36,714 bases of DNA, taken from NCBI GenBank assembly GCA_038870455.1, contig JAWCPB010000007.1:1-36714 (forward strand). The letters run 5' to 3'. A program made the translations under genes and the position numbers. The notes beneath the pieces were generated by a model that saw only the letters and a list, made by a program, of their open reading frames with translations, was not told where the DNA came from and did not search any database. Each line of letters starts with the position of its first letter. The first letter of the stretch is position 1. This DNA is from Candidatus Micrarchaeia archaeon (GTDB lineage: Archaea; Micrarchaeota; Micrarchaeia; Burarchaeales; JACRGF01). Positions 13,347 to 32,405 of the stretch are shown here, piece after piece.

Positions 13347-14347
13347 TCCAGCCTAATTCTCTTTCCCTTCTTCACCAAAATTATTTCCCTGCCTCTCGCA
13401 ACGCTGCCGATGACCGAAGCGCGCACGCCGGATTTCTTGCAGGCGCGGACCGCCTCCTCGGCCTCGTTTTTCGGCACGACAGCAACCATGCCCACTCCCA
13501 TGTTGAACGTGCGGTGCATCTCCCTGTCGTCCGCGCCGCTCGCTGACCTGATGGCCTCGAAGAGCTGCGGGGGCTCTGGCATGCCGTCCAGCACGAAACC
13601 AACCCCAGCCTGTCTTCCTATTCTCGCGAGCTTGCTGAAAGCCCCTCCGGTGATGTGCGCGAGGCCCCTCACGCTGCATTCAGCGAGAAGGCGCGCCACT
13701 GGCCTGGCATAGATGCGCGTGGGCCTGAGCAGCTCCCTCCCCCACTCCTCCAGGTCCAGCACCCTGCGCGCGAGCGTGAGGCCGTTGCTGTGTATGCCCG
13801 CCGAGGCCAGGCCTATGAGCGCATCGCCCGGCCGCATGGCGGCGCCTGTTATCACCTCATCCGCCACTCCGACAGCTGTCGCGGCGAGGTCGAAGCCCGT
13901 CCGCCCCGGCAGCCCGCGTATCACGTCGCCCATGACCGCGGTCTCGCCTCCTACGATTGCGGTGCCCGCCTCGCGCGCGCCCTTCACGAGGCCCCGCATC
14001 AGCTGCTTGACCAGCCCAAAGTCCTCCCGCTGCAGCGCGATGTAATCGACGAGCGCAAGGGGCCGCGCGCCCACGCAGGCGATGTCATTCACGTTCATGG
14101 CGACCGCGTCAATGCCGATGGTGTCGTACCTTCCGACATGCTGGGCCACGAGCACCTTCGTGCCCACCCCGTCGGTGTGCAGCGCGAGCGTCCTGCCCCC
14201 GCACCTGAACAGGCCCGCGTAGTGCCCTAGCAGCGGGTGCGACGCGCTCGTTCTCGTGCGCCTGATGAGCCAGTTTATGTAGCGCTGCATGCGCCGCACT
14301 GCCGCGACGTCAACACCAGCCTCAGCGTATGTGCGCATGGAAATCAT
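13343..14347 (-). CDS. purM: Phosphoribosylformylglycinamidine cyclo-ligase (AIR synthase)
   Basis: TYAEAGVD, TDGVGTK, AMNVND, GGETA, GIHSNGLTLAR, PTRIY, AHITGG, TFNMGVG. Start is ATG 14347 (ATGA overlap with the pilin stop) or 14338. Confidence 0.96.
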   Translation of the reverse strand: MISMRTYAEAGVDVAAVRRMQRYINWLIRRTRTSASHPLLGHYAGLFRCGGRTLALHTDGVGTKVLVAQHVGRYDTIGIDAVAMNVNDIACVGARPLALVDYIALQREDFGLVKQLMRGLVKGAREAGTAIVGGETAVMGDVIRGLPGRTGFDLAATAVGVADEVITGAAMRPGDALIGLASAGIHSNGLTLARRVLDLEEWGRELLRPTRIYARPVARLLAECSVRGLAHITGGAFSKLARIGRQAGVGFVLDGMPEPPQLFEAIRSASGADDREMHRTFNMGVGMVAVVPKNEAEEAVRACKKSGVRASVIGSVARGREIILVKKGKRIRLD

Positions 14348-14802
14348 GCGGGGTCTATGCGTCCCTGCAGTATGCCCGCGTCAACGTGGCCGGCCGCCCC
14401 TCCCTGCAGGTCGAAGCGGATTTCGAGCTTGACGTTGGTGAAGGTGTCGCCCACGCTTCCCGTCATCACGCTCTGCCCGGTGATGTTCAGCTGCCCCCCA
14501 GGGTCGACCGACTGCGGGAGGGCGGGCGAGAGGCCGGTGAGGTTGGCTCCCTTCACCGCAATGCTCGTGATGGTGACGCGCGCGCCGGCGTTGTTTATGA
14601 GGTAGAGCGTGATGTTTCCGTTGGGCACGACCTTGAAGTCGTACAGCGCGAAGGTGCCGAGCCCGAAAGCCTGGTTCCTGCCCGTGACGAAGGAGCCAGG
14701 GTTGAAGAAGCCGAGGTTGAACATGAGCACGAGCAGCACGCCCAGTATGAGGATGGCCCAGCCGTAGGTGATGAGGTACTCCATGGCCGTCTGCGCGCGC
14801 AT
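14344..14802 (-). CDS. Type IV pilin with class III signal peptide (locus A, terminal gene)
   Basis: MRA^QTAMEYLITYGWAILILGVLLVLMFNLGFF: Q+1, E+5 and the TYGWA motif of a common archaeal pilin family. Confidence 0.88.
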   Translation of the reverse strand: MRAQTAMEYLITYGWAILILGVLLVLMFNLGFFNPGSFVTGRNQAFGLGTFALYDFKVVPNGNITLYLINNAGARVTITSIAVKGANLTGLSPALPQSVDPGGQLNITGQSVMTGSVGDTFTNVKLEIRFDLQGGAAGHVDAGILQGRIDPA

Positions 14803-14805
14803 CGC

Positions 14806-15831
14806 TCACCTAATGGCTATGAATGATTTAAACACTTCCGTGAGCGTGTAGTGTGCGATGAAGAACAGCAGGAGGGCAGTGATCATGAACGGCAGGACGT
14901 ACTTCACGCCGTAGCTCACCTTGCCGTGGCGGATGAGCCCCAGCGTGAGCGCGCTGAAAAAAGTCGTCACGAGTATGCTCGTTATGGCGAAGGTCGTCAT
15001 CTCGGCCGCAGTTATCCTGTCCTCGGGCCGCGTGAGCGCGAATGTCGGAAGAAAGCCCACGCCGGCGGCGCCGGCGGGCAGCGCGCTGGGGCCAGCGAAC
15101 TCTGCACTCTGCGTCACGAGCTCGTTTATCTCAGTGTAGTAGATGCTCGTGGAAAACAGGATGGGCGAGGCGAGCACGGTGCTGAACACTATGAAAATCG
15201 TGTACATGAGCGTGGCGTTCTGAATCTCGTGGCGGAGGTTCGCCATCTCACGGATGTCGCGCGCTATCTCGTGCAGCAGCTGGGCCATCTGCCCTCCCAG
15301 CGCGCTTCCCTCTATGAGCAGGTTTATGGCGCGCTTGAGCGCTCTGCTCCTCACCCTCTCGGCCATCTCCCTGAAGGCAGTCGCCATGCTCATCCCGCCA
15401 TAAACTTTTGTCGATACGCGGCGGATCTCTTCCTCGAGCGGGCCGAACTCCGGCCGCGCGCTCGCCAGCACCGCGTTCTCTATCGTCATGCCCGCCCTCA
15501 TGTTGGCGCTTATCATCTGCAGCGCGTCCGGAAGCGCCTCCTCTATCTTCCTCGCGCGGTTGTCCGCGATGATTGTGAGAAGGAGGAAGAACAGCGTCTC
15601 GCTGACCGCGAACGAGACGATTCCCACGAGCAGGCTCTCGAGGAACTCCGCGAACGTCAGCGCTACGGCGAACGCGATGAGCGCCAGCGAGTAGCTCACC
15701 CACAGTGACAGCCCGACGTACTTCCTCGCGGGAATGTCGAAGTCCGCCTCCTGCAGCAGCCTGCCCACGTCGTCGATCACCCTCTGCGGGATGACCGCGC
15801 TCGTTATGACGAAAAGGCGGTCTAGCACCAT
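14806..15831 (-). CDS. TadC/PilC-like (T2SSF domain) pilus platform membrane protein, locus A
   Basis: RARKIEEALPDALQMISANMRAGMTIENA..PEFGPLEEE; GG-x-MA-x-LL; multiple TM helices. Confidence 0.9.
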   Translation of the reverse strand: MVLDRLFVITSAVIPQRVIDDVGRLLQEADFDIPARKYVGLSLWVSYSLALIAFAVALTFAEFLESLLVGIVSFAVSETLFFLLLTIIADNRARKIEEALPDALQMISANMRAGMTIENAVLASARPEFGPLEEEIRRVSTKVYGGMSMATAFREMAERVRSRALKRAINLLIEGSALGGQMAQLLHEIARDIREMANLRHEIQNATLMYTIFIVFSTVLASPILFSTSIYYTEINELVTQSAEFAGPSALPAGAAGVGFLPTFALTRPEDRITAAEMTTFAITSILVTTFFSALTLGLIRHGKVSYGVKYVLPFMITALLLFFIAHYTLTEVFKSFIAIR

Positions 15832-15832: not shown

Positions 15833-16705
15833 TCAATCCACGCTCGGCCTCCTCGAGGAGACGAAGTTTATGAAGAAGAGCTGGAACAGGATGATGCCGG
15901 CGATGATGGCCGGGAAGATGAGCTTGGGGATGGCGATGTTGAGGAACGACAGGATGATGACCGAAACGCTCACGCCGAGGGACGGCAGTATGCCCGTGCC
16001 CATCATGTACACCATCGTCCAGGGGTTCAGCTCCTGGCCGTACCTCTTAATGTCATCGACGCGCTCCTTGGTCAAGTCCTCGATGGTCGCCTCGAGCTCC
16101 ACCACGACATCCGAGCCGCTCGTGATGGCGTTCGAAACCTGCCACAGCACCCTGCGGAAGCGCGGCGATGGGTTCCGCTTGCTCGCCTCGTTGAGCGCCA
16201 TCGTCTCGGCGATTCCCATGTTTATGTGCTCCACGATGCGCTTGAACTCTGCGCTCACCTCGCCGTAGCCTTCCGTGATGCTCATCATGGCCTGGAACAG
16301 CGTGACGCCGGACTTGAGCTCGATGAGAATCTGCCGCAGCGCAGGGATGAGGTTGTCGTCGAGCGCCCTCACCCTCCGCGTGGCGATGACTCTCGGATAG
16401 AAGAGTGTGGAGAAGAAAGAGGCGGCTCCGACCGCGAGCGCGGCCGCGGCAGCGAAGACATACACGTTGATTCCGGCGAGGTAGCCAAGCAGGGCTATGC
16501 CCGCGGCCAGCACGAGCACGTTAGTCAGCGCGACGACAACGGTGAGCGCGGCGTACTCCTTGGCCGTCAGGTCGTAGTTCGCCTGGATGAGCTCCACCTT
16601 GAGACCCGGCGAGAGCTTGGCTATGGGCGCTCCGAGCGCGAGCAGCCTCTTTGCGAGCGCCACCGCCACGCTCGGGGGAAGCAGGCTGAACGGGATGCGC
16701 GGCAT
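15833..16705 (-). CDS. TadB/TadC-like (T2SSF domain) pilus platform membrane protein, locus A
   Basis: MPRIPF start at 16705; LDDNLIPALRQILIELKSGVTLFQAM..YGEVSAEF; TM helices; directly follows the ATPase. Confidence 0.9.
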   Translation of the reverse strand: MPRIPFSLLPPSVAVALAKRLLALGAPIAKLSPGLKVELIQANYDLTAKEYAALTVVVALTNVLVLAAGIALLGYLAGINVYVFAAAAALAVGAASFFSTLFYPRVIATRRVRALDDNLIPALRQILIELKSGVTLFQAMMSITEGYGEVSAEFKRIVEHINMGIAETMALNEASKRNPSPRFRRVLWQVSNAITSGSDVVVELEATIEDLTKERVDDIKRYGQELNPWTMVYMMGTGILPSLGVSVSVIILSFLNIAIPKLIFPAIIAGIILFQLFFINFVSSRRPSVD

Positions 16706-16706: not shown

Positions 16707-18218
16707 TCACGACCCCTCGCGCCTGAGCAGGACCTCGGGGCCCTTCTTCTTCTGCACGGCATCCACCACCGCGTCCCTGTTCCTGTAGTACGTCGCGGCG
16801 ATTCTGCCCACCTCGTCAATATCGTATATCCTGTTCTTCACCATGTAGGCGAGAATCTCCTCCTTCTCCCTCAGGTCCTCGTTGATCTCCTTCTCGTTCA
16901 TGCCCGTGTAGAGCTCGAGTTCTGTGAGCAGCCGCACGTAATTCCCCGCCCTCTCGACATCGTCTTTTTTCGCGTTCCACCTCCACACGCGGTTGAGCCT
17001 GACCTCCTTCTCACCCGGGAGCAGCTCGGCGACCTCAAGCGTCCTCCTTATGCCGGTCCGCCTCTGCCTGTACTGCACGAACACGAGGTGCACCGCGCCC
17101 AGCATGCTCTCGGGCAGGTTGATGGGCGGCGTGGTCATGCGGTTGATCATCTGCTCGGCGTTGTCCGCGTGAATTGTGGAATACACGGAGTGGCCCGTGT
17201 GCATGGCCTCGAAAAGCACCTCAGCCTCGTGCTGCCTCCTTATCTCGCCGACGACTATCCTGTCAGGCCTCATCCTCAGAGAATTCACCATGAGGTCGAG
17301 CATGGTCACCTCGCCCTTCCCCTCAGGGTTCGGCGAGCGCGTGACCATCGGAGTCCAGTGCAGGAAGGCCGGCAGGTAGAGCTCGCGCGTCTCCTCTATG
17401 CTGACGATGCGCTGGTTGGGCGGCACGAACACGAGCGCGGCGTTCAACAGGCTGGTCTTGCCGCTCGCCGTGCCCCCGGCGAATATGATGTTCATCTCGT
17501 ACTGCACGCAAAGCCACAGCAGCGCGGCCACCTCGTAGTTGATGGTCTTCATGGGATAGATGAGGTTGGCCGCCGTCCAAGGGGTCTTGGCGAACTTCCT
17601 TATCGTTATGGCATTGCCTTTTGTCGCGATGGGGAACAGCGTTGCGTTCGCCCTATCGCCTGTCGTTAGGTGCGCGTCGAGGATGGGGCTGAGGTTCGTC
17701 ACCTGCTTGCCCACCCTCCTGCCTATGATGCTCGCGTAGTTCTGAATCTGCTCCTCGCTCTTGAGGAAGAAGTTTGTCTTGAGCCAGCCGTGCCTCTTGT
17801 GATACACCCACAGCGGCTCGGCGGATGAATTCACCACAATCTCCTCGAGGTTCTCGTCCGCGAGCAGCAGCTCGATGTCGCCGAGGCCGATGAGGTCGTG
17901 CGTCAGCTTTCCCACCAGCACGCTCCTCGTCTCGTCAGTGATGTTCATGACCTCCCTCTCCACGAGCTCGTTCGCCTTCGCGAGGAATTTTTTCTTCATG
18001 CTCTCAGCCGCGCGGATGTCCAGCATCTCGCTCGCCTTGAGATTCACATCCTCGATTATCCTCTCCTTTATGTGCTCGAGCACCACCTCGGTTGGCTTCT
18101 GCAGCTTGACGGGCGCCACCTCGTACGTCGTGACGAGCTCGTCCTCCCTGTCGGCAATCGTTATCTCCACTGGAATTCCGTCTGCGTTCACCCTGTACTT
18201 CTCGATTATCCTGGGCAC
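16707..18218 (-). CDS. Type II/IV secretion (VirB11/TadA/PilB-like) pilus assembly ATPase, locus A
   Basis: Walker A GGTASGKT, Asp box SIEETREL, LRMRPDRIVVGEIR, His box MHTGH..STIHA. Confidence 0.95.
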   Translation of the reverse strand: MPRIIEKYRVNADGIPVEITIADREDELVTTYEVAPVKLQKPTEVVLEHIKERIIEDVNLKASEMLDIRAAESMKKKFLAKANELVEREVMNITDETRSVLVGKLTHDLIGLGDIELLLADENLEEIVVNSSAEPLWVYHKRHGWLKTNFFLKSEEQIQNYASIIGRRVGKQVTNLSPILDAHLTTGDRANATLFPIATKGNAITIRKFAKTPWTAANLIYPMKTINYEVAALLWLCVQYEMNIIFAGGTASGKTSLLNAALVFVPPNQRIVSIEETRELYLPAFLHWTPMVTRSPNPEGKGEVTMLDLMVNSLRMRPDRIVVGEIRRQHEAEVLFEAMHTGHSVYSTIHADNAEQMINRMTTPPINLPESMLGAVHLVFVQYRQRRTGIRRTLEVAELLPGEKEVRLNRVWRWNAKKDDVERAGNYVRLLTELELYTGMNEKEINEDLREKEEILAYMVKNRIYDIDEVGRIAATYYRNRDAVVDAVQKKKGPEVLLRREGS

Positions 18219-18219: not shown

Positions 18220-19020
18220 TCATCCCCTCCTGAAAACGCTCCTGGCTATCACGCGCGCCATCCTGTCGAAGAAGCCCGCCAGGCGGGCGAGCGGGCCTTT
18301 CCTGCCGAGGCTCGCCGAGCGGGCCTTGAAGACCGCTATCCTGCGCTTGAAGCCCTCGATGCGCCTCTCGAGCACATCCACTTTCCTGTCGAAGTCGGCC
18401 AACACGCCCTCCAGCGCCTCGCCTTCCCTGACAAGCCTGGCCGCCTCCTCGGGGCTCGCGCCCTTTTCCGCCTCCTCGAGCGCCTCGAGCGTCTCCTCGG
18501 CCCTCCGCAGCCTAGTGAGTATGTCGTCCTCGACAGACAGGAAGCGCTTTTCGCTCGCCCTCACATCGCTGTCGAGGCTCTCGAGCATTTCGGACAGGCC
18601 GGCGAGCTCTTTCTTTGCCGGGGCGGGCGCGCGCTCGCGTATGATGAGCTCCGTCTTGCCGGGGTGCAGCAGTGAGTACCTCACCGAGACGAGCCCGCTC
18701 TCTTCGAGAATGTCCGCGAGCTTCTCGACATCGTCCCTCTCGAGCGCCAGCGCCTCGGCGACCTCGGCCACCGTCGCCCTCTTCTTCTCCTTGATGAACT
18801 CGACCACCCTGTCGATGACGGTCCTCATCTCGCCGGGCCTCGCCTCGGCAGGCATCTCCGCCTGCGCGGGAGGAGCAGGCTCGGCCTCGCCTGTTTCTGC
18901 CGGAGCTTCGCTCGGGATTTCCGCCCGCGCCGGCTCCGCCGCCTCGGCCGCCCGCCCCTTTCCCTTCTTTTTCCTGCTCGTTTCACCCACCCCTGAGCCT
19001 GTCCCGCTTTTCAAATCCAT
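18220..19020 (-). CDS. Hypothetical protein: low-complexity N-terminus + winged-helix-like domain + coiled coil + amphipathic C-terminal helix
   Basis: wHTH-like segment TVIDRVVEFIKEKKRATVAEVAEALALERDDVEKLADILEESGLVSVRY, homologous to the N-terminus of the ATPase at 28312. Stop lies 1 nt before the ATPase start. Confidence 0.8.
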   Translation of the reverse strand: MDLKSGTGSGVGETSRKKKGKGRAAEAAEPARAEIPSEAPAETGEAEPAPPAQAEMPAEARPGEMRTVIDRVVEFIKEKKRATVAEVAEALALERDDVEKLADILEESGLVSVRYSLLHPGKTELIIRERAPAPAKKELAGLSEMLESLDSDVRASEKRFLSVEDDILTRLRRAEETLEALEEAEKGASPEEAARLVREGEALEGVLADFDRKVDVLERRIEGFKRRIAVFKARSASLGRKGPLARLAGFFDRMARVIARSVFRRG

Positions 19021-19930
19021 AGTTTATATCCCTAACCATGAGCTTGGACGGAAACACGACATAAAAGTCGGTCGTGTTGAAGTTGAAGCGAATGACCACG
19101 TCCGTGTCGCGCGAGCACGGCACGCCCGGGTTGCCGGGCTCGTGCAGGCGGATCAGCGCGATGTCATCGCCCCCGCCAGTGTCGCCGAGCGTGACTTCCA
19201 TCCAGCACGGCACCATCTTGACATCGAGCGTGCTCTTCTTGTTCGTCCTGAAGCCCGTCGCGTTGCAGATTTCGCCCGGGCAGGAATAAACTTGGCTCAT
19301 GTTATCCTCTATCCTGAGGCTGAAGTTCATGCAGTTGGGCAGGCTGCCGCAGGACGGCACGGTGAAGTCTGGCGACCACTTGAAGTGGCTGGCATTGCCC
19401 GGAGTGGGCGAGTACTCGAAGGACGCGTTCGGGAAGTCGAAGGACAGGTTGAGCGCGCCGAGCGCGCCGTACGCGCTCGTGTTGGCCCACTCTATCCTCA
19501 GCACCCTCTTTCCCCAGTCGTCAAGATAATCGTACTCGATTCCCCAGGGCTGGATGATTATGTCATCGGACATTGTTGCAAAGTCGATCGGGTTGTCCGC
19601 CTCATCGAGGAAAGTGATGTTCAGCTCGGGCGTCCTGTAATAGCCCTGTATGAAGGCATCGTACGCCTTCAGCGCGTTCGGCACATTCAGGTTCGCGGGC
19701 AGGTGGTCGTAGAACGTGAGCGTGTTGTTCTCCTGCACGATGGTGAGGCCGATGTTAGCCGCGAAGTCCTCCCTGACATCCTCGAAAACAAAGCGGATTT
19801 TCCTCGCGTCCCGCGCGTCGGCCGCCCTCTTCTCGCTCTCGCTTCCCGCGCTCTTGGCGGCGAGCCCGAAGCCCAGCAGCAGGGCGAAGAAAGCCAGCAC
19901 GGTTAGAGTGAGCAGGAAACCTCTTTTCAC
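18983..19930 (-). CDS. Large minor pilin-like protein lacking Glu+5, locus A
   Basis: GTG start (GTGA overlap), MKRG^FLLTLTVLAFFALLLGFGL; 6 Cys and several sequons; paralogue of 27402-28259. Confidence 0.75.
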   Translation of the reverse strand: MKRGFLLTLTVLAFFALLLGFGLAAKSAGSESEKRAADARDARKIRFVFEDVREDFAANIGLTIVQENNTLTFYDHLPANLNVPNALKAYDAFIQGYYRTPELNITFLDEADNPIDFATMSDDIIIQPWGIEYDYLDDWGKRVLRIEWANTSAYGALGALNLSFDFPNASFEYSPTPGNASHFKWSPDFTVPSCGSLPNCMNFSLRIEDNMSQVYSCPGEICNATGFRTNKKSTLDVKMVPCWMEVTLGDTGGGDDIALIRLHEPGNPGVPCSRDTDVVIRFNFNTTDFYVVFPSKLMVRDINYGFEKRDRLRGG

Positions 19931-23675: not shown

Positions 23676-26140
23676 AAGCGTTCATCGCCGCAGCCATGCT
23701 GCTCGCCCTTTCCCCGCTAGCCCTTGCACTCTCTGCAAACGCCTCGCTCGTCCCTCCGAACAACGAGGTTTCGATGGGCGCGGCGAGCGCCACGCTCTCC
23801 TTCAACATCACCGACACCACCTCGCCGCCCGTGGATAGGATTTACAGGGTGATAATCCGCTTTCCTGCAAATCTTTACTCTGTCTCGTTTGCCACAGTCC
23901 CCCCTGCCGGCTGGTCTTACATCCTGCGTTCTCCAGGAGGCGGCGTCAATAACGAAATAGAGTTTTTGACAGAAGCCGGTTCCCCGCCCACCATCCCACC
24001 AGGTGGCTCAAAAGTGTTTGACGTTGTGATAACGGGCGTGGGCGGCGCGTCCATTCCTTCAGCCAGCACCGGCCAGAGCGACTCCACAGTAGCCATTCAG
24101 GTTCAGTACTCCTCCTCGCCCAGCACGGTTGTTTTAAATCCGGTTTTCTGGCAGCGCAGGGCTCTTTCGGCAAGCATCACTGCTTTCCCATCCTCGGTCG
24201 GGAACGGCGGGCTGGTCACAGTCGTGCTCAACATTTCAAACGGCGCCACCACAACAGCCACCAATGTGGTTCCGAGCCTGGCGTACATCGCCACGGGCAC
24301 TGCGAGCGCTTCGCTTGTCTCTGGGCCCACTCCGCCTTCGGTCGCCTCGCTGGCTCCTGGGGTGAGCGCGACCTTTACCTATGTCTATAATGCCAGCACG
24401 GGCGCGAGCGGGGGCACACTGCAGTTCTATGGGAATGCCACCGATGGGCCAGGCCTCTCTTCGAACACGGCCTACTCCAACATTGTCACTGTGGCCGGCT
24501 TCGCCGCGGTGATAACCGCCGCGCCCTCCCGTGTGCTTTCGAAGGAACTTGTAAATGTCACCATGACAGTGAGGAATAATGGCAACTCGACTTTGTACGG
24601 CGTGGTTCCATACCTCTCTGCCTCAGGCACGGCGAGCGCGACCCTCCTCTCGGGCCCCATGCCCACTTCGATCGTCTCGCTCGCCCCCAATGCCACAGGC
24701 ACATTCAACTGGATTTATAACATCACTGGGAGTGAGGGAGATTATGTGGTTTTCTCGGGCAACGCGAGCGCCAATGGCGGGGCAGTGCTCTCGCCAACAG
24801 TCCAGAGCAATCCCGTCTTCATCGTGGCATTCCGCGTCACAGTGGCGCCAGAAAACATTTTTTCCGGAGACACCAACTTCTTCCTGAACTACACCGTTTT
24901 CAACGGCGGAACCGACAGCATCGACCAGGTGGAAATAACCCCGACGAGCGACTACGACATCGGCACAGCCCACTCCGGGCCGCCAGGTTGGCAAATCACT
25001 GTGGTGGGAGGAACCACAGTACGCTTCAGGAAGACAAGCGCGCCTTACTTGGGCCCGGGCCAGTTCGCTGTTTTCACAGTCCACTACGACAGCGTCGCTG
25101 TCACCGGCACTGAGAAAAACGATTCCCACGCGGTGCGCCTGCGCCAGCTCGTTTCACCCTACCAGCCCAACCTGCAGGCCTATGTCATGCGCCGCGTGCC
25201 TGGCGTTGCGCTCGTGCGCATCACCTCGCCTGCGAACGGCTCGAACGTCACGCAGTACTCACTCTTCTACGCAACTGCGAACCTCACGGCAGTCAACGGC
25301 AGCCTGCGCAACTGCAACATCACCCTGACAACCTCTCCGGCAGGCCTGCCGCTCGCAGCAGGAGAGAACGCCACGAAAAGCATTTCCTTCCTCGGCAAGG
25401 GCGACTCAGCTCTGTTTTCCTGGCTGCTGAACGCCACAACGCTCGGCTACTACAACATCACGGTGGCCTCGGCCTGCCAGAAAGGAAATGCCACGAACCA
25501 CACCATAACGATTCGCGTTGTCATGGCCGGGGCAACGATTTCTTCGGACAAGAACTCCTACACGAACTGCGGCACCGTGTATTACCGCGTGGCAACACGC
25601 GATGAGAACAACATCCTAGTCGATTCCAACCTCTCGGTCTACATCTACGACGCCCTATCCTCGCTCATCACAAACTTCACTGCAACTACGGGCAGCCCCT
25701 CCACCGGCCTGTACGACAATCAGCTCTTGCTGAATGCCTCGGCACAGCCTGGGAACTGGCTCATCCGCGTGCTCAGCGAGGGCGCGATCGGCGAGGGATA
25801 CTTCTATGTTGGGACGGGCAGCACAGAGCTGTGGCGCATCGACCTTGCCTTCTCCCCTGACCGCGTCTCCTATCCGCTCAACTCGAACTTCTCCATCACC
25901 TTCCGGATCTACAACCAGCTCGGGGAGGGCGTGCCCGGGCTGGCCTCGCCCTCGACAATGACATTCCAGATAGACGGCGGGCCGAACCTCGCCGGCAGCG
26001 TGAGCGACCTGGGAGGCGGGCTATACGCCTATAACTACAACGCCTCCTCCGCAGGCGCTCACTGGGTTGATGTGAGCGCCAAGGCCTCGCCGCTCGCGAG
26101 CGTAACGGTGAGGGCTTCGAGGAGTTTTGTGGTGGCGTGA
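23666..26140 (+). CDS. Large secreted multi-Ig-domain (CARDB/DUF11-like) surface protein, candidate adhesin
   Basis: Sec-type signal peptide; Ser/Thr/Asn-rich with many NxS/T sequons; tandem ~110-aa repeats at about 24161-24495 and 24497-24830; no C-terminal TM anchor. Confidence 0.8.
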   Translation: MSIKAFIAAAMLLALSPLALALSANASLVPPNNEVSMGAASATLSFNITDTTSPPVDRIYRVIIRFPANLYSVSFATVPPAGWSYILRSPGGGVNNEIEFLTEAGSPPTIPPGGSKVFDVVITGVGGASIPSASTGQSDSTVAIQVQYSSSPSTVVLNPVFWQRRALSASITAFPSSVGNGGLVTVVLNISNGATTTATNVVPSLAYIATGTASASLVSGPTPPSVASLAPGVSATFTYVYNASTGASGGTLQFYGNATDGPGLSSNTAYSNIVTVAGFAAVITAAPSRVLSKELVNVTMTVRNNGNSTLYGVVPYLSASGTASATLLSGPMPTSIVSLAPNATGTFNWIYNITGSEGDYVVFSGNASANGGAVLSPTVQSNPVFIVAFRVTVAPENIFSGDTNFFLNYTVFNGGTDSIDQVEITPTSDYDIGTAHSGPPGWQITVVGGTTVRFRKTSAPYLGPGQFAVFTVHYDSVAVTGTEKNDSHAVRLRQLVSPYQPNLQAYVMRRVPGVALVRITSPANGSNVTQYSLFYATANLTAVNGSLRNCNITLTTSPAGLPLAAGENATKSISFLGKGDSALFSWLLNATTLGYYNITVASACQKGNATNHTITIRVVMAGATISSDKNSYTNCGTVYYRVATRDENNILVDSNLSVYIYDALSSLITNFTATTGSPSTGLYDNQLLLNASAQPGNWLIRVLSEGAIGEGYFYVGTGSTELWRIDLAFSPDRVSYPLNSNFSITFRIYNQLGEGVPGLASPSTMTFQIDGGPNLAGSVSDLGGGLYAYNYNASSAGAHWVDVSAKASPLASVTVRASRSFVVA

Positions 26141-26517
26141 TGCGTGCGCAGATGAGTGCGGAGTTCATCATCATTCTGTCGCTGGCGTTCTCTCTCCTCA
26201 TCCTTGCAGCTGTCATCTACTCCGGCGAGGATAGAAACAGCGCAATCACGCAGGAGAGGATTCGCGCGCGGCACGCCGCACAGGCCATTGCGCTCGCGGC
26301 GAATGAAGCCTTCCTCTCGGGGAACGGCACGCGCATCTACATTGAGCTTGACAGGGAGTACAACGTTTCGATTGAAGAGCGCGCGGTGAGAGTCGCGCGA
26401 GGCAGCGTCTCGAGCTCATCTCAGGTCATCACCGACTCTCTGACAAACAGCAGCCCGCTCAACGGCTCGTTCTCGCTCACCATAACAAACCAAAACGGGG
26501 TCGTTGTCATTGGCTAG
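26140..26517 (+). CDS. Pilin with class III signal peptide, locus B
   Basis: MRA^QMSAEFIIILSLAFSLLIL (QxSxE motif); TGATG overlap with the upstream stop. Confidence 0.85.
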   Translation: MRAQMSAEFIIILSLAFSLLILAAVIYSGEDRNSAITQERIRARHAAQAIALAANEAFLSGNGTRIYIELDREYNVSIEERAVRVARGSVSSSSQVITDSLTNSSPLNGSFSLTITNQNGVVVIG

Positions 26518-26998
26518 AGGACAGGCTTTTTCGCTTGACCTCATGATCGGCGCTGGCGCGCTGCTCATCCTGCTTGCAGCGTATTTCCTTTCCCTTTCCG
26601 ACATCACCATGCGCACCAATGCCTTTGAGGCAACGCGCGCCGCGCGGCTGCACGCGCTTGAGGCCTCTGCCGCGCTGCTCGCTCCAGGAGAGAGCGCGGC
26701 CTGGCACGCCCTGCCACAGGCCAACCTCTCGGCAGTGCGCGCGCTGGGGCTCGCCGGCCAGCCGGGCGTTCTGGAGCCCGCCAAGCTCAACCGCCTGCAG
26801 GGAATGGACTACAACGAGAGCAAGGCGCTGCTGGGACTCGAGGGCTTGGACTGGCGGCTCTCAATCTTCTCGCCGAACGGCACGCTCCTGTATTCAGCGG
26901 GCTCCTCTCCCGCGCCAGAAATCCAGTCCATTGTTGTCGAGCGCGTTACCGTGCTCAACGCCTCGCCCGCAAAGCTCAAGCTGGAGGTGTGGCGATGA
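26504..26998 (+). CDS. Minor pilin-like protein, locus B
   Basis: ARG^QAFSLDLMIGAGALLILL; PGE..W..LGLA..YNESKALLG; C-terminal KLEVWR. TTG start at 26504 or 26510. Confidence 0.8.
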   Translation: MSLARGQAFSLDLMIGAGALLILLAAYFLSLSDITMRTNAFEATRAARLHALEASAALLAPGESAAWHALPQANLSAVRALGLAGQPGVLEPAKLNRLQGMDYNESKALLGLEGLDWRLSIFSPNGTLLYSAGSSPAPEIQSIVVERVTVLNASPAKLKLEVWR

Positions 26999-27405
26999 AG
27001 GGCTTTTTCATCTCGCTCGATGCGGTGCTCGCCGTCCTGCTGGCTTTCCTTCTTCTCGCCACCTCGCTGCTCGTCGCTGGCGACATAAAGAGCGTGGCGG
27101 CGGAGGAGGTGCAGTTGAAGAGGGTGAGCGAGGACATTCTTGCAGTGCTCGAGAAGAGCGGAAGGCTCGCGCTCACCCCGGAGGCCGGCGGGGCAAGCGA
27201 GGTGACGGAGGTTTTCCTAGCCGCGCCGGACAGCGCGTGCTTCAGGCTGCGCGTGCTGAGGGCAAGCGACCTGAAAATCCGTAGGGTGATTGTCAGGCCG
27301 GGGTGCGGAAACCCTGAAGAGTTCCATCAGGTGACAAAAAGGTCCTTTGTCTTTGACAGGGGGTTTTACATCGCTGAGCTGACTTCGTGGAGGCGGCGGG
27401 CTTGA
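26995..27405 (+). CDS. Minor pilin-like protein, locus B
   Basis: MKG^FFISLDAVLAVLLAFLLL; SEDILAVLEKSG; GGAGGTG SD sequence and ATGA overlap. Confidence 0.8.
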   Translation: MKGFFISLDAVLAVLLAFLLLATSLLVAGDIKSVAAEEVQLKRVSEDILAVLEKSGRLALTPEAGGASEVTEVFLAAPDSACFRLRVLRASDLKIRRVIVRPGCGNPEEFHQVTKRSFVFDRGFYIAELTSWRRRA

Positions 27406-28259
27406 GGGGCTTCGTCATATCCATCTCGATTCTGTTGCTCTTCTCCGTCATACTCTCGTTCGTGCTCTTCCTATATCACGAGAACGCGAGGGCCGAGGCC
27501 AAGCTCGCGCGCGCGCACAGCATCCCATCCCCAGCCTATTTCTTTGACGATGTCGCCACAGACCTTTCCTCCCTCCTCAGCCACAACATCACCGCGCTCA
27601 GGGACAACACCACATTACGCATTCGCATTCAGGGCTCTTTTGCAAACCCCCCGAGCGCGGCCAACTTCACGGCATACTCCTCCCTCCTCTCCTCCGGTTA
27701 CTCGAACCTCACCAACTCCAACCTCAGCCTGGACGCGGCCGGCCTGGCTGACGGCACGGGCGAGGCGGCCTTCTCGAACGGCCTGCTGTTCAGCTACGCC
27801 TACACGGGCGCGTCCAAGAGCGCCTTCCTCTCCTCTTCCGCAAACGACACCGGCGCGTCGGCTTACGAGATTAACGTGAGCGTGGACAGGAACAGGCAGA
27901 GCTACAACCCATGGAGCTCCTCGCCCGGAGGCGACTTGAACGTCACCCTCCGCATCATGGACAGGAGCGGAAACCTCACGAGCATCGTCAGCCTCAACCG
28001 CAGCGCGGTCAATGCATACACCGTCGCCTACCAGGGAGGCTCGCTCATCATAAGGGCGGGCAAAATAGGCGCGGCGAACGGCGCGCTCGAGGTGAACCCC
28101 AGCGGGAACATAGTCGATTACACTTACTATACCTCAGTCGCCTCGCTGCCGCCGGGCAACCTCTCAGCCTCCATGCGCTATTACTGGAACGCGTGGCTGA
28201 ATTACTCGCGGCCCGGGAACGTCTCGCGCAGCGACTGGGTTGAGATTGGCAGAGCGTGA
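27402..28259 (+). CDS. Large minor pilin-like protein lacking Glu+5, locus B
   Basis: TTG start (TTGA overlap, GGAGG SD), MRG^FVISISILLLFSVILSFVLFL; YFFDDVATDL matches FVFEDVREDF of 18983-19930. Confidence 0.75.
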   Translation: MRGFVISISILLLFSVILSFVLFLYHENARAEAKLARAHSIPSPAYFFDDVATDLSSLLSHNITALRDNTTLRIRIQGSFANPPSAANFTAYSSLLSSGYSNLTNSNLSLDAAGLADGTGEAAFSNGLLFSYAYTGASKSAFLSSSANDTGASAYEINVSVDRNRQSYNPWSSSPGGDLNVTLRIMDRSGNLTSIVSLNRSAVNAYTVAYQGGSLIIRAGKIGAANGALEVNPSGNIVDYTYYTSVASLPPGNLSASMRYYWNAWLNYSRPGNVSRSDWVEIGRA

Positions 28260-28273: not shown

Positions 28274-28290
28274 GGGAAAGTGTTTTTAAG
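28274..28290 (+). promoter_or_regulatory. Internal promoter (BRE/TATA) for the ATPase-platform genes of locus B
   Basis: GGGAAAGTGTTTTTAAG ends 22 nt before ATG 28312 and shares AAGTGTTTTT(T)AAG with the locus A promoter arm. Confidence 0.55.
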
Positions 28291-28311: not shown

Positions 28312-30045
28312 ATGGCAGTCATCCTGACGAAAATCGACCGCATGATGGAGATTCTGGAAAAAGAGAAGCGCGCGAGCTTCGACTCCCTCGCCCGCCGCCT
28401 CGAGTGGAGCGTGGATGTGGTCGAGAGGGTTGCGAAAGTGCTCGAGGGGCACGGCGTGCTTGAGATAAGCTACCCCATCAATGTCATCCAAAAGCCTTCG
28501 CTGGCCCTCAGGAAGCCCGTTCCTGCCCCGCAGCCTCTTCCGGAGCTCACCGAGAGGGAGCTCGAGAGCTACGAGATTTCAGCGGACGGCGTGCCCGCGA
28601 CCGTGAGGGTGTTCTACAGCGAGGGCGAAAAGCACGCGGCCTACCGCCTCGAGCTGCCGCAGCTCGGCCAATACACGCAGCTCTACTTGGACTACCTCAA
28701 GGACGCCATAGCCAAGGAAGTTCCCGTCGAGGCCCAGCAGATCACGGACCTGGAGAGGGCGAAGGCAACGCGCGACAAGTTCCTGACAGTGGCGGGCGCC
28801 AAGCTCGAGCCCCTCGGGGCCGAGGGCGCCGATGTGCTGCGCGGCGTGCTGCTGCACGAGATGTACGGCCTCGGCGACATCGAAGTCATCATGGCAGACG
28901 ACTGGGTAGAGGAGGTCGCCATAAACAACGCGCGCACGCCCATTGCCGTTTATCACCGCAAGTACGGCTGGATGAAGTCCAACATTTTTCCAGTCAGCGA
29001 GGAGGACATCGCCAACTACAGCGCCCAGATAGGGCGGAAGGTGGGCAGGCAGATTTCCTCGCTCGACCCCATCCTCAACGCGCACCTGCTGTCCGGCGAC
29101 CGCGTTGCCGCAACGCTGTTTCCCATCTCAACCCAGGGCAACACGATTACGATACGCAGGTTCGCGCGCAACCCCTGGACGGTCACGAACTTCATCTCGC
29201 CCGAGCTGCACACGATGAGCGTGGAAATGGCCGCCCTCCTGTGGCAGGCCATCCACTACGAGATGTCGATCATCATCGCCGGAGGCACCGCGAGCGGCAA
29301 GACGAGCACGTTGAACAGCCTGTGCGCGCTCATCCCGCCCTTCCAGCGCGTCATCACCATTGAAGACACGCGCGAGCTCCAGCTGCCTGCCTTCGAGTGG
29401 AACTGGATTCCCATGGTCACGCGCCTTCCCAACCCAGAGGGCTTGGGCGAGGTGAAGATGCTCGACCTCATGGTGAGCAGCCTGCGCATGAGGCCGGACC
29501 GCATCGTGCTCGGAGAGATAAGGCGGCGGGAGGAGGCGGAGGTGCTTTTCGAGGCCATGCACACGGGCCACTCCGTGTATTCCACCATTCACGCGGACAC
29601 GGGCACGCAGGTCATCCGCCGCCTCACCGAGCCCCCCATCGAAATTCCGACTCTTGAGGTGGAGGCGCTCAACCTTCTCGTCATCCAGTACAGGGACAGG
29701 CGCAAGAACATCCGCAAGACGCTCGAGATATGCGAGATAGCGCCCGGCGCGGAGGAGCGCGGGCTGGCGCTGCACCGCCTTTTCGCCTGGCGCGCGCGCC
29801 GCGATGACTTCGAGAAGGTCAAGGAGCCGCACCGCCTTTACGAGGAGCTCAACCTGCACACGGGAATGACGCAGGCCGAAATCATCGAGGACCAGGAGGC
29901 GAGAGCGGCCATACTCAAGTGGATGCTGGCAAATAAGCTTGAGAACATAAACGACGTGGGCGCTGTCATGCGCGCTTACTACGCAGATCCGGCGGCCATC
30001 CTCAAGGCTGCGGAGGCCGGCACCCCTCCCTCCAAGGTGCTGTGA
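28312..30045 (+). CDS. Type II/IV secretion pilus assembly ATPase with a fused N-terminal winged-helix-like domain, locus B
   Basis: GGTASGKT, TIEDTREL, LRMRPDRIVLGEIR, MHTGH..STIHA; about 80 extra N-terminal residues relative to the locus A ATPase. Confidence 0.95.
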   Translation: MAVILTKIDRMMEILEKEKRASFDSLARRLEWSVDVVERVAKVLEGHGVLEISYPINVIQKPSLALRKPVPAPQPLPELTERELESYEISADGVPATVRVFYSEGEKHAAYRLELPQLGQYTQLYLDYLKDAIAKEVPVEAQQITDLERAKATRDKFLTVAGAKLEPLGAEGADVLRGVLLHEMYGLGDIEVIMADDWVEEVAINNARTPIAVYHRKYGWMKSNIFPVSEEDIANYSAQIGRKVGRQISSLDPILNAHLLSGDRVAATLFPISTQGNTITIRRFARNPWTVTNFISPELHTMSVEMAALLWQAIHYEMSIIIAGGTASGKTSTLNSLCALIPPFQRVITIEDTRELQLPAFEWNWIPMVTRLPNPEGLGEVKMLDLMVSSLRMRPDRIVLGEIRRREEAEVLFEAMHTGHSVYSTIHADTGTQVIRRLTEPPIEIPTLEVEALNLLVIQYRDRRKNIRKTLEICEIAPGAEERGLALHRLFAWRARRDDFEKVKEPHRLYEELNLHTGMTQAEIIEDQEARAAILKWMLANKLENINDVGAVMRAYYADPAAILKAAEAGTPPSKVL

Positions 30046-30084
30046 GGCGCCTCCAGAGTTTGAGGTTTTGTGTTGAGGTGAAGC

Positions 30085-30975
30085 ATGCGCATTCCGTTCA
30101 TGCTGATTTCGGTTGAGACCGGCGAGAGGCTCTCCAGGCGTTTTGTGGGAATTGGAAAGAAGCTTCTCGGAATTTTCCCTGGCGTGCGCTACGACCTGCG
30201 CAATGCGGGCCTGGCCATTGAGCCCGAGAAGTACTGCGTGACCGCGCTGTTCTCCGCAATCGGCTGGGGCGTTCTATTCCTCCTCATCGGGTTCGCCGCC
30301 ACCTACGTCAGGACAGAGGGCGAGCTGGGCGCAGCAGGCGCGGCCGGCGGAGGCCTGTTTCTCTCCTTCACAGCCATCTTCTTCCTACTTCACGTCTTCT
30401 ATCCGGGCATCCTGGCGCGCAAGATCGCCGAGAGCATTGACAAGGACCTGCTGTTCGCGCTCAAGGACATGCTCATCCAGGTCAGGAGCGGCATTTCGCT
30501 GTACAACGCCATGCAGAACATCGCGGCCAGCGACTACGGCCACATCTCGAAAGAGTTCCAGACAGCGGTGCGGCAGATAAGCGCGGGCGAGAGCGAGAGG
30601 AGCGCGCTCGAGAAAATCGCGCTGCGCACGCAGAGCGAGTACTTCAAGCGCAGCATATGGCAGCTCATCACCGCCATGCAGTCGGGGGCGAGCGTGGAGG
30701 GAGCGCTCCGCTCCATCCTCGACATTCTCGTGGCGCGCCAGCGCCAGGCCATCCGCGGCTACTCGTCCGACCTGAACTTCCTCATCCTCATCTACCTGCT
30801 TTTCGCAGCGGTCATCCCGAGCATTGGGGTGACCATGCTCGCGCTGCTCAGCGCCTTCTCCTCTGTCAACATAACGCCAGGGCTTTTCGCGGGCGTGGCC
30901 GTCGTTTCCTTCGTCGTCCAGATATCGCTCATCGGCGCGATAAACTCCTCGAGGCCGGAGGTGTATTCGAGTTGA
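30085..30975 (+). CDS. TadB/TadC-like (T2SSF domain) platform protein, locus B
   Basis: MRIPF start after GAGGTGA; IDKDLLFALKDMLIQVRSGISLYNAM..YGHISKEF; paralogue of 15833-16705. Confidence 0.9.
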   Translation: MRIPFMLISVETGERLSRRFVGIGKKLLGIFPGVRYDLRNAGLAIEPEKYCVTALFSAIGWGVLFLLIGFAATYVRTEGELGAAGAAGGGLFLSFTAIFFLLHVFYPGILARKIAESIDKDLLFALKDMLIQVRSGISLYNAMQNIAASDYGHISKEFQTAVRQISAGESERSALEKIALRTQSEYFKRSIWQLITAMQSGASVEGALRSILDILVARQRQAIRGYSSDLNFLILIYLLFAAVIPSIGVTMLALLSAFSSVNITPGLFAGVAVVSFVVQISLIGAINSSRPEVYSS

Positions 30976-32405
30976 AGAAAAAAACCCTGAGAAAACCCGC
31001 GCCGGCAAAGACGGAGGAAAAAAAGACCGTGCCAAAGGCTCTGCCAGAAGCTGAAGCGCCTGAGGCAGGAGAAATCCCTCTCGCGCGGCCGGAAATGGCA
31101 CCCGCTCCTGTTGCAAAGCGCGAGGGGCTTCTCGCGCGCTTGGGGAAAAGAATTTTCGGGACTCCGCGTCCAAGGCCGCCTGCAAAACCAGCGCCTTCGC
31201 TCGAGGCCGCGAAGCCCGCGGTTGAAGCCAAGCCGGCGGTTGCACCGGCAAGACCTCCTGCGGAAAAGGCGAGGCCGGCCGCGGCTGAAGCAATGCCCAC
31301 TCCGGAAAAGCCCGCGAAAATCCCTGCTCCGGCAAAGCGTGAGGGAATTGCCGCGGGCCTGCGCAGGCGAGTGTTCAACACCTACAAGGGAGTGGCGCGC
31401 TTCGTCAAGGCCGGCTACCAGCAGAGGGTGCAGGCGTGGCTCGACTACGCCGGCATCACGACCGAAGTCGATGTGTGGCTGGGCTCGCGCCTGCTCATCG
31501 CCTTCCTTTTCGGCGTTTTCGCCTTCCTCCTTCCCTGGACTCTCGGCGTGTATCTGGGCGTGGTGGTCATCGCCACGCTCAGCGAGTACGTCCGGACGCT
31601 CGCCCTGTCGCTGGCTCTCGGCGGAGCCACCTTCGCTCTCATCCTGTTCCTCTACTATCTGCACCTCTACTACATCATTGACGACCGCACCAAGAGGGTC
31701 GAGCGCGCGCTGCCGGACTTCCTGCTCATGGTGGCTGCAAACATGCGCGCTGGCATGACGCCCTTCACGGCCTTCCACGTTTCTGCGAGGCCTGAGTTCG
31801 GCCCGCTCGAGGACGTCATAAAGATCGTTGCGGCAAAGGCCATGGGAACAGAGAGCCTGACGGCTGCATTCGCCGAAATCCCGCGTTATGTCCGGTCCGA
31901 CCTGCTGAAGAAGACCGTCTCCTTCTTTGAGAAGGGCATGCGCAGCGGCGGGCACCTCGCGCGCATTCTCGAGAGCAGCGCTGAGGAAATCCGCGAGACG
32001 CAGGAGCTGCGGAACGAGCTCATCGTCAGCACCAAGACCTACACGATTTTCCTCATCTTCGTCGTCGTTATCGGCATTCCCCTGCTTTTCGCCATTTCCT
32101 CGCAGTTCCTCGGCACCTTCTCCAAGATACAGGAGCAGCAGAGGGGCGCGGCCTTCGCCGGCGAGGTGGGGGTGGCCTTCTTCACTGGCGCCCTGACGCT
32201 CACGCCCGAGTTCGTCACCCAGGCCTCCTACATCCTGCTCGTCATAACCGCTTTTCTCGTCAGCATCCTCATCGGCGTGATAGGCGAGGGAAAGCTGCTC
32301 TATGGAGTGAAGTACTTCATTCCAATCGCGCTCGGCTCGGTGGTCACGTTCATCTTCATACGCAACGCCATAGCCAGCGTGCTCGGAGTCATCGGCGGGC
32401 TCTAG
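30972..32405 (+). CDS. TadC/PilC-like (T2SSF domain) platform protein with a Pro/Ala/Lys-rich N-terminal extension, locus B
   Basis: TTG start (TTGA overlap, GGAGGTG SD); RTKRVERALPDFLLMVAANMRAGMT..PEFGPLE; YGVKY; paralogue of 14806-15831. Confidence 0.9.
   Translation: MKKKTLRKPAPAKTEEKKTVPKALPEAEAPEAGEIPLARPEMAPAPVAKREGLLARLGKRIFGTPRPRPPAKPAPSLEAAKPAVEAKPAVAPARPPAEKARPAAAEAMPTPEKPAKIPAPAKREGIAAGLRRRVFNTYKGVARFVKAGYQQRVQAWLDYAGITTEVDVWLGSRLLIAFLFGVFAFLLPWTLGVYLGVVVIATLSEYVRTLALSLALGGATFALILFLYYLHLYYIIDDRTKRVERALPDFLLMVAANMRAGMTPFTAFHVSARPEFGPLEDVIKIVAAKAMGTESLTAAFAEIPRYVRSDLLKKTVSFFEKGMRSGGHLARILESSAEEIRETQELRNELIVSTKTYTIFLIFVVVIGIPLLFAISSQFLGTFSKIQEQQRGAAFAGEVGVAFFTGALTLTPEFVTQASYILLVITAFLVSILIGVIGEGKLLYGVKYFIPIALGSVVTFIFIRNAIASVLGVIGGL

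Follow-up and report, generated by a model that had tools for sequence, protein, structure and literature searches.

Two probable, anciently diverged type IV pilus gene sets lie head to head at a probable compact promoter in one micrarchaeal genus

The stretch of DNA analysed here (the window) is 36,714 nucleotides (nt) long and is the whole of contig JAWCPB010000007.1 (C7) of Candidatus Micrarchaeia archaeon assembly GCA_038870455.1. This genome (G000) has 1,038,003 base pairs (bp) in 51 contigs and is estimated to be 90% complete. Two divergent gene sets with the parts of type IV pilus (T4P) loci, arm A on the minus strand and arm B on the plus strand, face away from a 67-nt spacer in the window. 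Read outward, the order common to both arms is a pilin, four pilin-like proteins, a winged-helix domain, a secretion ATPase, and two half-size platform proteins. Beyond arm A lie the housekeeping genes purL, purF, purD, and purM with SHMT, and beyond arm B lie a gene for a secreted or anchored protein of 489 amino acids (aa) and gatE/gatD. The G+C content is about 0.59-0.66 throughout the window. A preliminary description, made from the sequence alone, had interpreted the arms as twin mirror-image pilus loci diverging from a palindromic hinge. The features are given below, arm A outward, then the hinge, then arm B outward.

21340..21750, minus strand: A1, pilin of 136 aa, first gene of arm A; N-terminus MAKA/QAGMEY, then a hydrophobic helix.
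20912..21343, minus strand: A2, pilin-like protein of 143 aa, paralogue of B3; motif R-A-Q-F-S-L-E-F.
20361..20909, minus strand: A3, pilin-like protein of 182 aa as drawn, paralogue of B4; motif [KR][GA]Q..S.D.
19927..20364, minus strand: A4, pilin-like protein of 145 aa, paralogue of B5.
18983..19930, minus strand: A5, large pilin-like protein of 315 aa, paralogue of B6; 10 N-glycosylation sequons and motif [KR]RGF..T.
18220..19020, minus strand: A6, separate winged-helix protein of 266 aa, counterpart of the N-terminal domain of B7.
16707..18218, minus strand: A7, secretion ATPase of 503 aa (Pfam T2SSE, PF00437, 112.9 bits, cut-off 24.9).
15833..16705, minus strand: A8, platform half 1, TadB-like, 290 aa (Pfam T2SSF, PF00482, 52.3 bits).
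14806..15831, minus strand: A9, platform half 2, TadC-like, 341 aa (T2SSF 56.8 bits).
14344..14802, minus strand: A10, PilA-like pilin of 152 aa, MRAQTAMEYLITYGW..., after the platform genes and without a blastp-paired gene in arm B.
21773..21794, no strand assigned: palindrome TTAAAAAACA-CT-TGTTTTTTAA (10+10 nt, perfect), inside the spacer 21751-21817 between A1 and the KaiC gene.
21818..22582, plus strand: B0, single-domain KaiC/ArlH-like ATPase of 254 aa, first gene of arm B (Pfam KaiC, PF06745, 203 bits).
22587..23675, plus strand: B1, pilin with a C-terminal extension, 362 aa, 13 sequons.
23666..26140, plus strand: B2, secreted immunoglobulin (Ig)-like repeat protein of 824 aa with a Sec-type signal and 27 sequons; no counterpart in arm A.
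26137..26517, plus strand: B3, pilin-like protein of 126 aa, paralogue of A2 by hhalign and class-III motif.
26504..26998, plus strand: B4, pilin-like protein of 164 aa, paralogue of A3 by blastp, hhalign, and class-III motif.
26989..27405, plus strand: B5, pilin-like protein of 138 aa, paralogue of A4 by hhalign.
27387..28259, plus strand: B6, pilin-like protein of 290 aa with 13 sequons, paralogue of A5 by hhalign and class-III motif.
28281..28290, plus strand: second TATA-like box, TGTTTTTAA, ending 22 nt before the start of B7.
28312..30045, plus strand: B7, winged helix-turn-helix (wHTH) domain fused to a secretion ATPase, 577 aa (T2SSE 112.0 bits, cut-off 24.9).
30085..30975, plus strand: B8, platform half 1, 296 aa (T2SSF 58.2 bits).
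30972..32405, plus strand: B9, platform half 2, 477 aa if TTG 30972 is the start (T2SSF 51.7 bits).

Gene content and order are as first described, with corrections to the coordinates: A1 starts at GTG 21750, A2 most likely starts at 21343, and the KaiC gene starts at 21818. Accessory genes differ between the arms, as had also been stated: arm B has the KaiC-like protein, the 824-aa Ig-like protein, and a fused wHTH domain, and arm A has a separate wHTH protein and a terminal PilA-like pilin. Neighboring genes in both arms overlap or are separated by 1-4 nt; the exceptions are B7 and B8, which are preceded by gaps of 52 nt and 39 nt.

Paralogous pairs in the two arms can be recognized at several levels of similarity. 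Pairwise blastp within the window links A7 with B7 (48.8% over 500 aa, E 2e-175), A9 with B9 (39%, E 3e-45), A8 with B8 (27%, E 2e-36), A1 with B1 (E 3e-8), and A3 with B4 (E 5e-5). The match between A2 and B3 is weak (E 0.05), and A4 with B5 and A5 with B6 gave no match in this search. For profile comparison, orthologues were taken from 34 loci of related genomes (41 genomes were sampled in the survey); each open reading frame (ORF) was assigned to the family of its best blastp match, and rows covering less than half of the query were dropped. This gave alignments of 6-20 rows for 11 pilin-like families, which were compared in all 55 family pairs by hhalign. The top five pairs are exactly the five that the preliminary description had proposed: A3 and B4 (99.9%, E 8e-33), A1 and B1 (99.7%, residues 4-136), A5 and B6 (99.3%, 221 columns), A2 and B3 (98.4%), and A4 and B5 (98.3%). 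A second hhalign comparison of A4 and B5 on separately built alignments gave 98.5% (E 2.8e-15). Below the top five are cross-links among the true pilins A1, A2, B1, and B3 (90-98%), and the remaining pairs match over the N-terminal helix of about 30 residues alone.

AlphaFold models of A4 and B5 (predicted local distance difference test, pLDDT, 85.7 and 84.8) have an identical order of elements, with an N-terminal helix of about 50 residues, short helices, and a four-stranded sheet, and 34 of their 50 best PDB entries in a VIA search are in common. All 11 pilin-like families begin with a class-III-type N-terminus followed by about 20 hydrophobic residues, and the variant of this motif is pair-specific. 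A1, A2, A10, B1, and B3 have [KR][GA]Q..E[YF], A3 and B4 have GQ..S.D, A4 and B5 have GF...LDA, and A5 and B6 have RGF..T. The winged-helix domains also correspond, with residues 67-144 of A6 matching residues 6-81 of B7 (blastp E 1e-7); the best structural relative of their common profile is the wHTH of LrpA (1I1G, E 1.9e-6), with weaker matches to FeoC, TFE, and IclR. We regard the ordered paralogy of the arms as real because the hhalign pairs, the predicted models, the pair-specific motifs, and the shared wHTH profile agree.

Both arms can be assigned to the archaeal kind of machine with an ATPase, TadC-like proteins, and class III pilins, as initially proposed. Their ATPases score far above the T2SSE threshold, and the closest solved structures to A7 are GspE of A. 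fulgidus (2OAP, E 7.7e-74), FlaI (4II7, E 1.8e-51), and CpaF (E 1e-49). All four platform proteins (51.7-58.2 bits) exceed the T2SSF cut-off of 25.2 bits, and they correspond to the two halves of UpsF. A8 aligns to positions 23-244 of 484 and A9 to positions 264-432; B8 aligns to the N-terminal half of UpsF, and B9, which has a low-complexity N-terminal extension, aligns to the C-terminal half of UpsF/ArlJ. G000 encodes one A24 prepilin peptidase (PF01478, C22:12191-12523, 39.2 bits, cut-off 26.5).

Comparison of ATPases is useful for placing the two arms relative to other pilus loci. G000 has six T2SSE ATPases, four of which (in arm A, in arm B, and in loci on contigs C3 and C8) each have two TadC halves after them; the C8 locus also has a KaiC gene and B1-, B3-, and B4-like genes, which are on the opposite strand. 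An ATPase tree (IQ-TREE quick, LG+C20) was built from 56 rows and 34 genomes after one 245-aa fragment was dropped, and it was rooted on two distant ATPases of G000. Support by the Shimodaira-Hasegawa-like approximate likelihood-ratio test (SH-aLRT) is 99 for an A clade (22 rows), for a clade of 18 rows that joins B (11 rows) with the C8 type (7 rows), and for a C3-type clade (12 rows); there is also a small fourth clade, and the tree does not settle the branching order among the clades. The closest paralogue of B7 is the C8-type ATPase on another contig of G000, not A7. Forcing A and B into a clade without the C8 type lowers the log-likelihood by 71 units, and the approximately unbiased (AU) test rejects it (p-AU 0.0019), so the copies in the two arms are not each other's closest relatives, as copies from a mirror duplication should be. 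The A/B split is placed before the origin of the class by this tree because the A clade and the B and C8-type clade each include genomes from other orders. The arms are 20-49% identical at the protein level, in keeping with the original view that the duplication is old.

Distribution of the loci indicates that the pairing is younger than the loci. A sister genome of the same genus (G001), the nearest relative in the collection, has ATPases 92% identical to those of G000 at a DNA identity of about 85% overall, and it has the identical head-to-head arrangement including both flanks. The arrangement is thus present in two of two genomes of the genus. In G019, which is 96% complete in two contigs, the A and B ATPases are on one contig at 259 kilobases (kb) and 527 kb, 267 kb apart, and in G008, G026, G004, and G028 they are on different contigs. 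In the sequence available upstream of the A1 orthologue (3.4-9.7 kb), no B-type gene was found in nine genomes (the five just named and G013, G022, G024, and G006), and no A-type gene was found in the available 2.8-7.2 kb upstream of KaiC in those same five. The twin arrangement was therefore not found beyond the genus in nine genomes beside A1 and five beside KaiC; absence from relatives is what the preliminary description had named as the mark of chance adjacency, and the suggestion of a conserved twin arrangement is not borne out. G002 (89% complete), from the other of the two genera sampled for the family, has an A-type locus, and no B-type ATPase was found in it at E <= 1e-150.

The A and B loci keep their own internal order when they are apart, and other families of the order have orthologues of each arm, 54-64% identical, at separate sites. 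Genes A3-A5 are missing from the A-type loci in genera g8 and g17. Pilin and motor modules lie on opposite strands in G038, in G029, and on contig C8 of G000, and this shows that modular rearrangement of these loci is frequent. Since B7 groups with the C8 type and the loci lie apart outside the genus, the arms are best described from these comparisons as a genus-specific juxtaposition of two old loci rather than a mirror duplication, and the twin origin that had been suggested is not supported.

Taken together, the locus most probably holds two complete, anciently diverged paralogous T4P sets of the Epd/Tad-like "two-TadC" kind that meet head to head at a compact promoter in one genus. In each arm, the class-III signals of the pilin and four pilin-like proteins would be cut by the single A24 prepilin peptidase of the genome, a hexameric assembly ATPase of the GspE/ArlI/CpaF type would drive assembly, and the membrane platform is split into two half-size T2SSF proteins like bacterial TadB/TadC. 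The winged-helix domain is a separate protein in arm A and part of the ATPase protein in arm B. Arm B would add a KaiC/ArlH-like modulator and a secreted Ig-like adhesin or sheath, and arm A would add a PilA-like major subunit. The two sets are separate lineages that occur across the class, with the head-to-head join arising only in the ancestor of this genus, and each TATA box at the join would direct leaderless transcription from the first codon of A1 or KaiC. Both machines presumably assemble pili, and they may have different jobs, such as different host-contact or adhesion tasks.

The hinge between the arms has the features of a promoter. The palindrome, found as described at 21773-21794, is the sole perfect inverted repeat in the window (10-nt arms, spacer <=6), and it consists of two back-to-back TATA boxes whose ends are 22 and 23 nt upstream of the start codons of A1 and KaiC. 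In the 1.04-Mb genome, 36 matches to perfect inverted repeats with 10-nt arms were found, overlapping positions included, and many of the others belong to a dispersed hairpin repeat. Probably this repeat is the hairpin whose arms, CTTTTGCCGG and its complement, enclose a 4-nt loop and which occurs at 12 places in G000, on contigs C1, C2, C9, C12, C18, C32, C43, and C44 (e.g., C1:57303 and C9:31091). Across 859 crude gene calls, the frequency of pure A/T 8-mers has a sharp peak 24-28 nt before the start codon, and the hinge boxes by the same measure are at 26 nt (A1, GTG 21750) and 27 nt (KaiC, ATG 21818). We interpret this peak as the signature of TATA boxes that drive leaderless mRNAs. GGAGG/GGTG-like motifs occur upstream of internal genes and are absent before A1 and KaiC, and the transcripts of both A1 and B0 would be leaderless. 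Of 240 divergent gene pairs (crude calls), 27 have spacers of 40-60 nt, and a single A/T box lies in the center of most of these; near-palindromic A/T pairs occur in some of the longer divergent spacers. Leaderless transcription and shared bidirectional promoters thus seem to be the rule in this Micrarchaeon.

The box sequence TGTTTTT(T)AA has 16 copies in the genome, 12 of them with a start codon 19-28 nt downstream. It was considered as a pilus-specific regulatory motif and rejected, as 13 of the 16 copies are outside these loci, most of them before unrelated genes. A third box of the hinge type ends 22 nt before B7, and arm B probably comprises two transcription units for this reason, with the box at 28281-28290 as a separate promoter of the motor module. 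The hinge itself is best taken as a compact bidirectional promoter of the ordinary archaeal kind because its boxes are at the TATA position seen genome-wide and such spacers are common. The palindromic hinge reported earlier is real, and the special control point that had been attached to it is better explained as an ordinary double TATA.

An alternative, which we consider unlikely, is that the palindrome couples both operons, either as an operator or as a double promoter with steric exclusion, perhaps through A6 or B0, so that pilus A, pilus B, or both together would be made under one control point. Constraint on the hinge is evident in the sister genome, where the palindrome is identical and lies within an identical run of 44 nt (21759-21802), the 14th longest identical run between G000 and G001 and the sole non-coding one. 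The exact 22-mer was found among archaea in the sister metagenome-assembled genome (MAG) alone, and its three other matches are Bacteroidales contigs. The two hinge boxes are 14 bp apart center to center, with a common 6-bp stretch at the expected TFB-recognition elements, and by the established geometry of archaeal pre-initiation complexes two of them at the hinge would probably exclude each other at any instant. The arms also encode a wHTH domain and a KaiC-family ATPase, either of which could serve in regulation. However, each half-site is at an ordinary TATA position, the same type of box serves unrelated genes, and compact divergent promoters, including those with near-palindromic A/T pairs, are frequent in the genome. 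The arrangement is also confined to one genus, and both loci work apart elsewhere. Furthermore, in three of the four paralogue types examined the ATPase carries the wHTH domain as a fusion, which fits an accessory of the motor better than a free repressor.

It is highly improbable, though of some reach, that the genus-specific joining of the two operons at the 22-bp double-TATA palindrome makes a hard-wired either/or device, in which two TBP/TFB complexes compete for overlapping DNA and each initiation is committed to pilus A or to the KaiC-led arm B. If this were true, the outcome would be biased by B0 or by A6, the free wHTH protein, and the filaments used in host contact would become heterogeneous in a manner like phase variation, without DNA rearrangement.

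We consider it rather improbable that at least one arm is not an adhesive pilus and instead builds a pseudopilus-type machine for secretion or for DNA uptake or transfer from the same parts. Bacterial type II secretion systems (T2SS) and competence pseudopili have minor-pilin sets of this sort, which the four minor-pilin-like proteins and one pilin of each arm recall, and arm B has no small PilA-like pilin comparable to A10. DPANN archaea rely on contact and exchange with a host, according to the available text of PMC5498576. On the other hand, scans with Pfam and NCBIfam found no DNA-handling genes in either arm, and the closest sequence relatives are archaeal pilus and archaellum ATPases. 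We know of no secretin-free archaeal T2SS.

A recent or local inverted duplication, in which one arm was copied as a mirror image around the hinge and then diverged, is extremely improbable and can be taken as refuted for practical purposes. It would account for the same gene order in both arms and for the palindromic center, but that order is general for the locus family and is also found in the C8-type locus, and the low identity between the arms, the separate orthologues in other families, and the grouping of B7 all contradict it. Least credible is an assembly artefact joining unrelated loci at the A/T-rich palindrome, for although the Logan contigs of the best DNA run (18972-21773 and 21748-24175) meet at the hinge with a 26-nt overlap, the second of these spans the palindrome and reaches 36 nt into the A side, including the A1 start codon, and the separately assembled G001 has the same join in a 151,933-nt contig with the same flanks (purM and the 489-aa protein), so a chimeric join is unlikely. 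Logan contigs of four DNA runs from one study are fragmented over 14000-33000; apparent joints in this region were treated as noise from other organisms, as their sides are just 20-26 nt.

Several results weigh against reading the locus as two pilus sets joined at an ordinary promoter. No pilin-like protein matches a Pfam family above threshold, and NCBIfam has no family for any of the 11 pilin-like proteins or for B2. Foldseek searches of the A4 and B5 models against PDB found nothing at E <= 0.001; the best VIA matches of these models are PAS/Cache-like sensor domains of middling Z (7-9, the top ones 8.7-8.9), and no solved pilin is among the 50 best VIA entries of either. The loci belong to no experimentally characterized subtype because the NCBIfam equivalog models for the archaellum, Ups, Bas, Tad, and KaiC all score below their cut-offs. 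For the archaellum, ArlI (NF058587) scored 295.7 and 264.1 bits against 550, ArlJ models scored at most 27.6 against 400-570, and ArlH (NF052589) scored 18 against 215. For the Ups and Bas systems, UpsF scored at most 39.1 against 400 and BasE scored 134 against 1000, and TadA (TIGR03819) scored 181.9 and 159 against 373. Circadian KaiC (NF006799) scored 168 against 408, and B0 has one PF06745 domain, not the two in tandem (about 500 aa). The group of A and B used in the AU test was named after the tree had been seen, and non-adjacency in fragmented MAGs rests on the sequence present around each locus. Finally, the 44-nt identical run at the hinge would, as a sign of constraint, also fit an operator for a dimeric regulator.

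Several properties of the two arms have published parallels. According to the available text of PMC4858521, tadC genes come in pairs in archaeal clades 1 and 2, T4P loci have been duplicated both ancestrally and within single lineages, and a locus has about five minor pilins; pilin sets are exchanged as modules, ATPases of the KaiC family are linked to T4P loci, and in one organism a single locus contains two ATPases. Two distinct T4P systems are reported for the cultured Micrarchaeon "Ca. Mancarchaeum acidiphilum" Mia14 and as common to many Micrarchaea (available text of PMC5498576), and DPANN T4P islands with unrecognizable pilins are also on record (available text of PMC6393860). In view of these reports, the suggestion of an undescribed system made in the preliminary description is not supported. 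A head-to-head T4P pair in Micrarchaeota and ordered minor-pilin paralogy were not described in the literature searched; these are details rather than a new kind of system.

The closest likeness is to euryarchaeal Clade 1 and Clade 2 T4P loci, such as those of Haloferax volcanii (PilB3/PilB4) and Methanococcus maripaludis (Epd); it is a likeness of kind, and we assign no numbered clade (PMC4858521, in the text available). These loci share with arms A and B a VirB11/GspE-family ATPase with two tadC-like genes, about five class-III pilins, and an association with KaiC, as well as several paralogous loci per genome and shuffling of pilin and motor modules, as far as that text describes them. Sub-threshold links from A2 to DUF7266 and from A3 and B4 to DUF7287 point the same way. 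Unlike those loci, the present ones have a wHTH domain, free or fused, before the ATPase, four motor sets in a 1-Mb genome, and pilin families without a Pfam or NCBIfam model above threshold. The bacterial Tad/Flp (type IVc) system likewise has a CpaF-like ATPase, a platform split into two single-T2SSF proteins, and small pilins with minor pilins. However, the arms have no secretin, TadZ, TadD, or RcpB-type parts, and their signal-peptide motif is of the archaeal type. The ATPases also resemble ArlI/FlaI of the archaellum ArlH-ArlI-ArlJ set, and B0 recalls ArlH, but the platform is split here and the arms have no archaellin or ArlF/G/X/CDE genes.

The T4P of Mia14, compared by its description, and the DPANN islands share lineage, kind of locus, more than one system per reduced genome, and a proposed role at the host interface (PMC5498576; PMC6393860), whereas the available text of these two reports does not mention a head-to-head arrangement, ordered minor-pilin paralogy, or a four-clade ATPase structure. 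Saccharibacteria of the candidate phyla radiation (CPR) offer a parallel in bacteria, as an ultrasmall episymbiont has two distinct T4P (for episymbiosis and for twitching) and likewise more than one specialized machine. Those are T4aP-type bacterial systems with no relation of descent to the loci described here (available text of PMC11623550).

Among the individual pilins, A1 has a Pfam Class_IIIsignal match (PF04021) of 20.7 bits, under the cut-off of 23.7, and its motif [KR][GA]Q..E[YF] is kept in the 15-row alignment. Its start codon is GTG at 21750 and is ATG in G001. Sub-threshold matches to Pfam DUF7266 occur in four of nine A2 orthologues, and those to DUF7287 occur in two of five A3 orthologues and two of nine B4 orthologues; we take both to be haloarchaeal families. 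One A3 orthologue (L019:7088-8164, G013) has a von Willebrand factor A domain (VWA_2, E 1.3e-11), which suggests that the A3-type position of the pilin set may have an adhesive tip role. A10 is the probable major pilin of arm A. Its family alignment has 20 rows from 18 loci, with two copies in L019, and outside the genus 13 of 22 A-type loci have A10 after the platform genes; further A10-like copies in G000 are on C2, C1, and C36. In a phmmer search of PDB, A10 matched the "pilin" chain 6W8U alone, at a non-significant E 0.12. Orthologues of A1/B1 are fused to, or run into, ORFs of 1001 aa in G039 (L031:8228-11233) and 685 aa in G038 (L035:3536-5593). Large C-terminal pilin extensions recur in these loci, in two other orders.

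Arm B proteins outside the pilin and motor sets may contribute to regulation or to the cell surface. B0 matches KaiC halves and the single-domain protein PH0186 (2ZTS, E 6e-40) in PDB. It precedes the B1 orthologue in all five B-type loci from other genera of the order for which the pilin module was captured, and also in G038. A B0-B7 complex prediction from alignments of just 9 and 14 rows scored 0.00, which speaks neither for nor against a contact. B0 is a probable modulator of the arm B machine. The extension of B1 has MG2, Filamin, or Fn3-like matches in orthologues. B2 has weak Pfam matches to MG2, DUF7507, and CARDB, all under the cut-off, and about 200 C-terminal aa are kept in B-type loci of other genera; it is a probable adhesin or sheath protein. 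Sequons are frequent in the predicted extracellular proteins and absent from B0, A6, A8, and B9. The B2 gene also holds the longest identical runs between G000 and G001 (136, 100, 87, 74, and 73 nt), and the protein is 92% identical, compared with 79-84% for its neighbors B1, B3, and B4. This pattern points to recent exchange between lineages or unusually strong constraint.

Neighboring genes of the two arms deserve brief description. A second KaiC-domain protein of 327 aa (9875-10858, minus strand; PF06745 76.5 bits, DUF7504) is encoded among the purine genes about 3.5 kb past the end of arm A, and more KaiC-like genes are near the C8- and C3-type pilus loci of G000. The stop codon of A10 overlaps the start of purM by 4 nt (14344-14347), with the same neighbor in G001, and purM may be co-transcribed with the ten-gene pilus operon of arm A. 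The 489-aa protein beyond arm B (32389-33858, minus strand) combines a signal peptide with a middle part rich in coiled coils and a membrane anchor at the C-terminus, and no Pfam or NCBIfam family was found for it. G001 keeps it beside arm B (67%), and G000 has four partial paralogues of it (one on C26, one on C23, and two on C17).

The pairings reported here give names to ten "hypothetical" pilin-like proteins, which is of modest value as annotation. The loci are no new kind of system and resolve no open question. Possible competition of the two operons at the double-TATA hinge is the only lead with some reach. This genome would also document leaderless transcripts from TATA boxes about 26 nt upstream of the start codon and many compact two-way promoters. 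As many as four Tad/Epd-like pilus motors, diverged long ago, are retained in micrarchaeal genomes of about 1 Mb, and in G000 the four pilus loci take up about 3-4% of the DNA, as estimated from locus coordinates. This is consistent with surface filaments being central to a host-dependent life.

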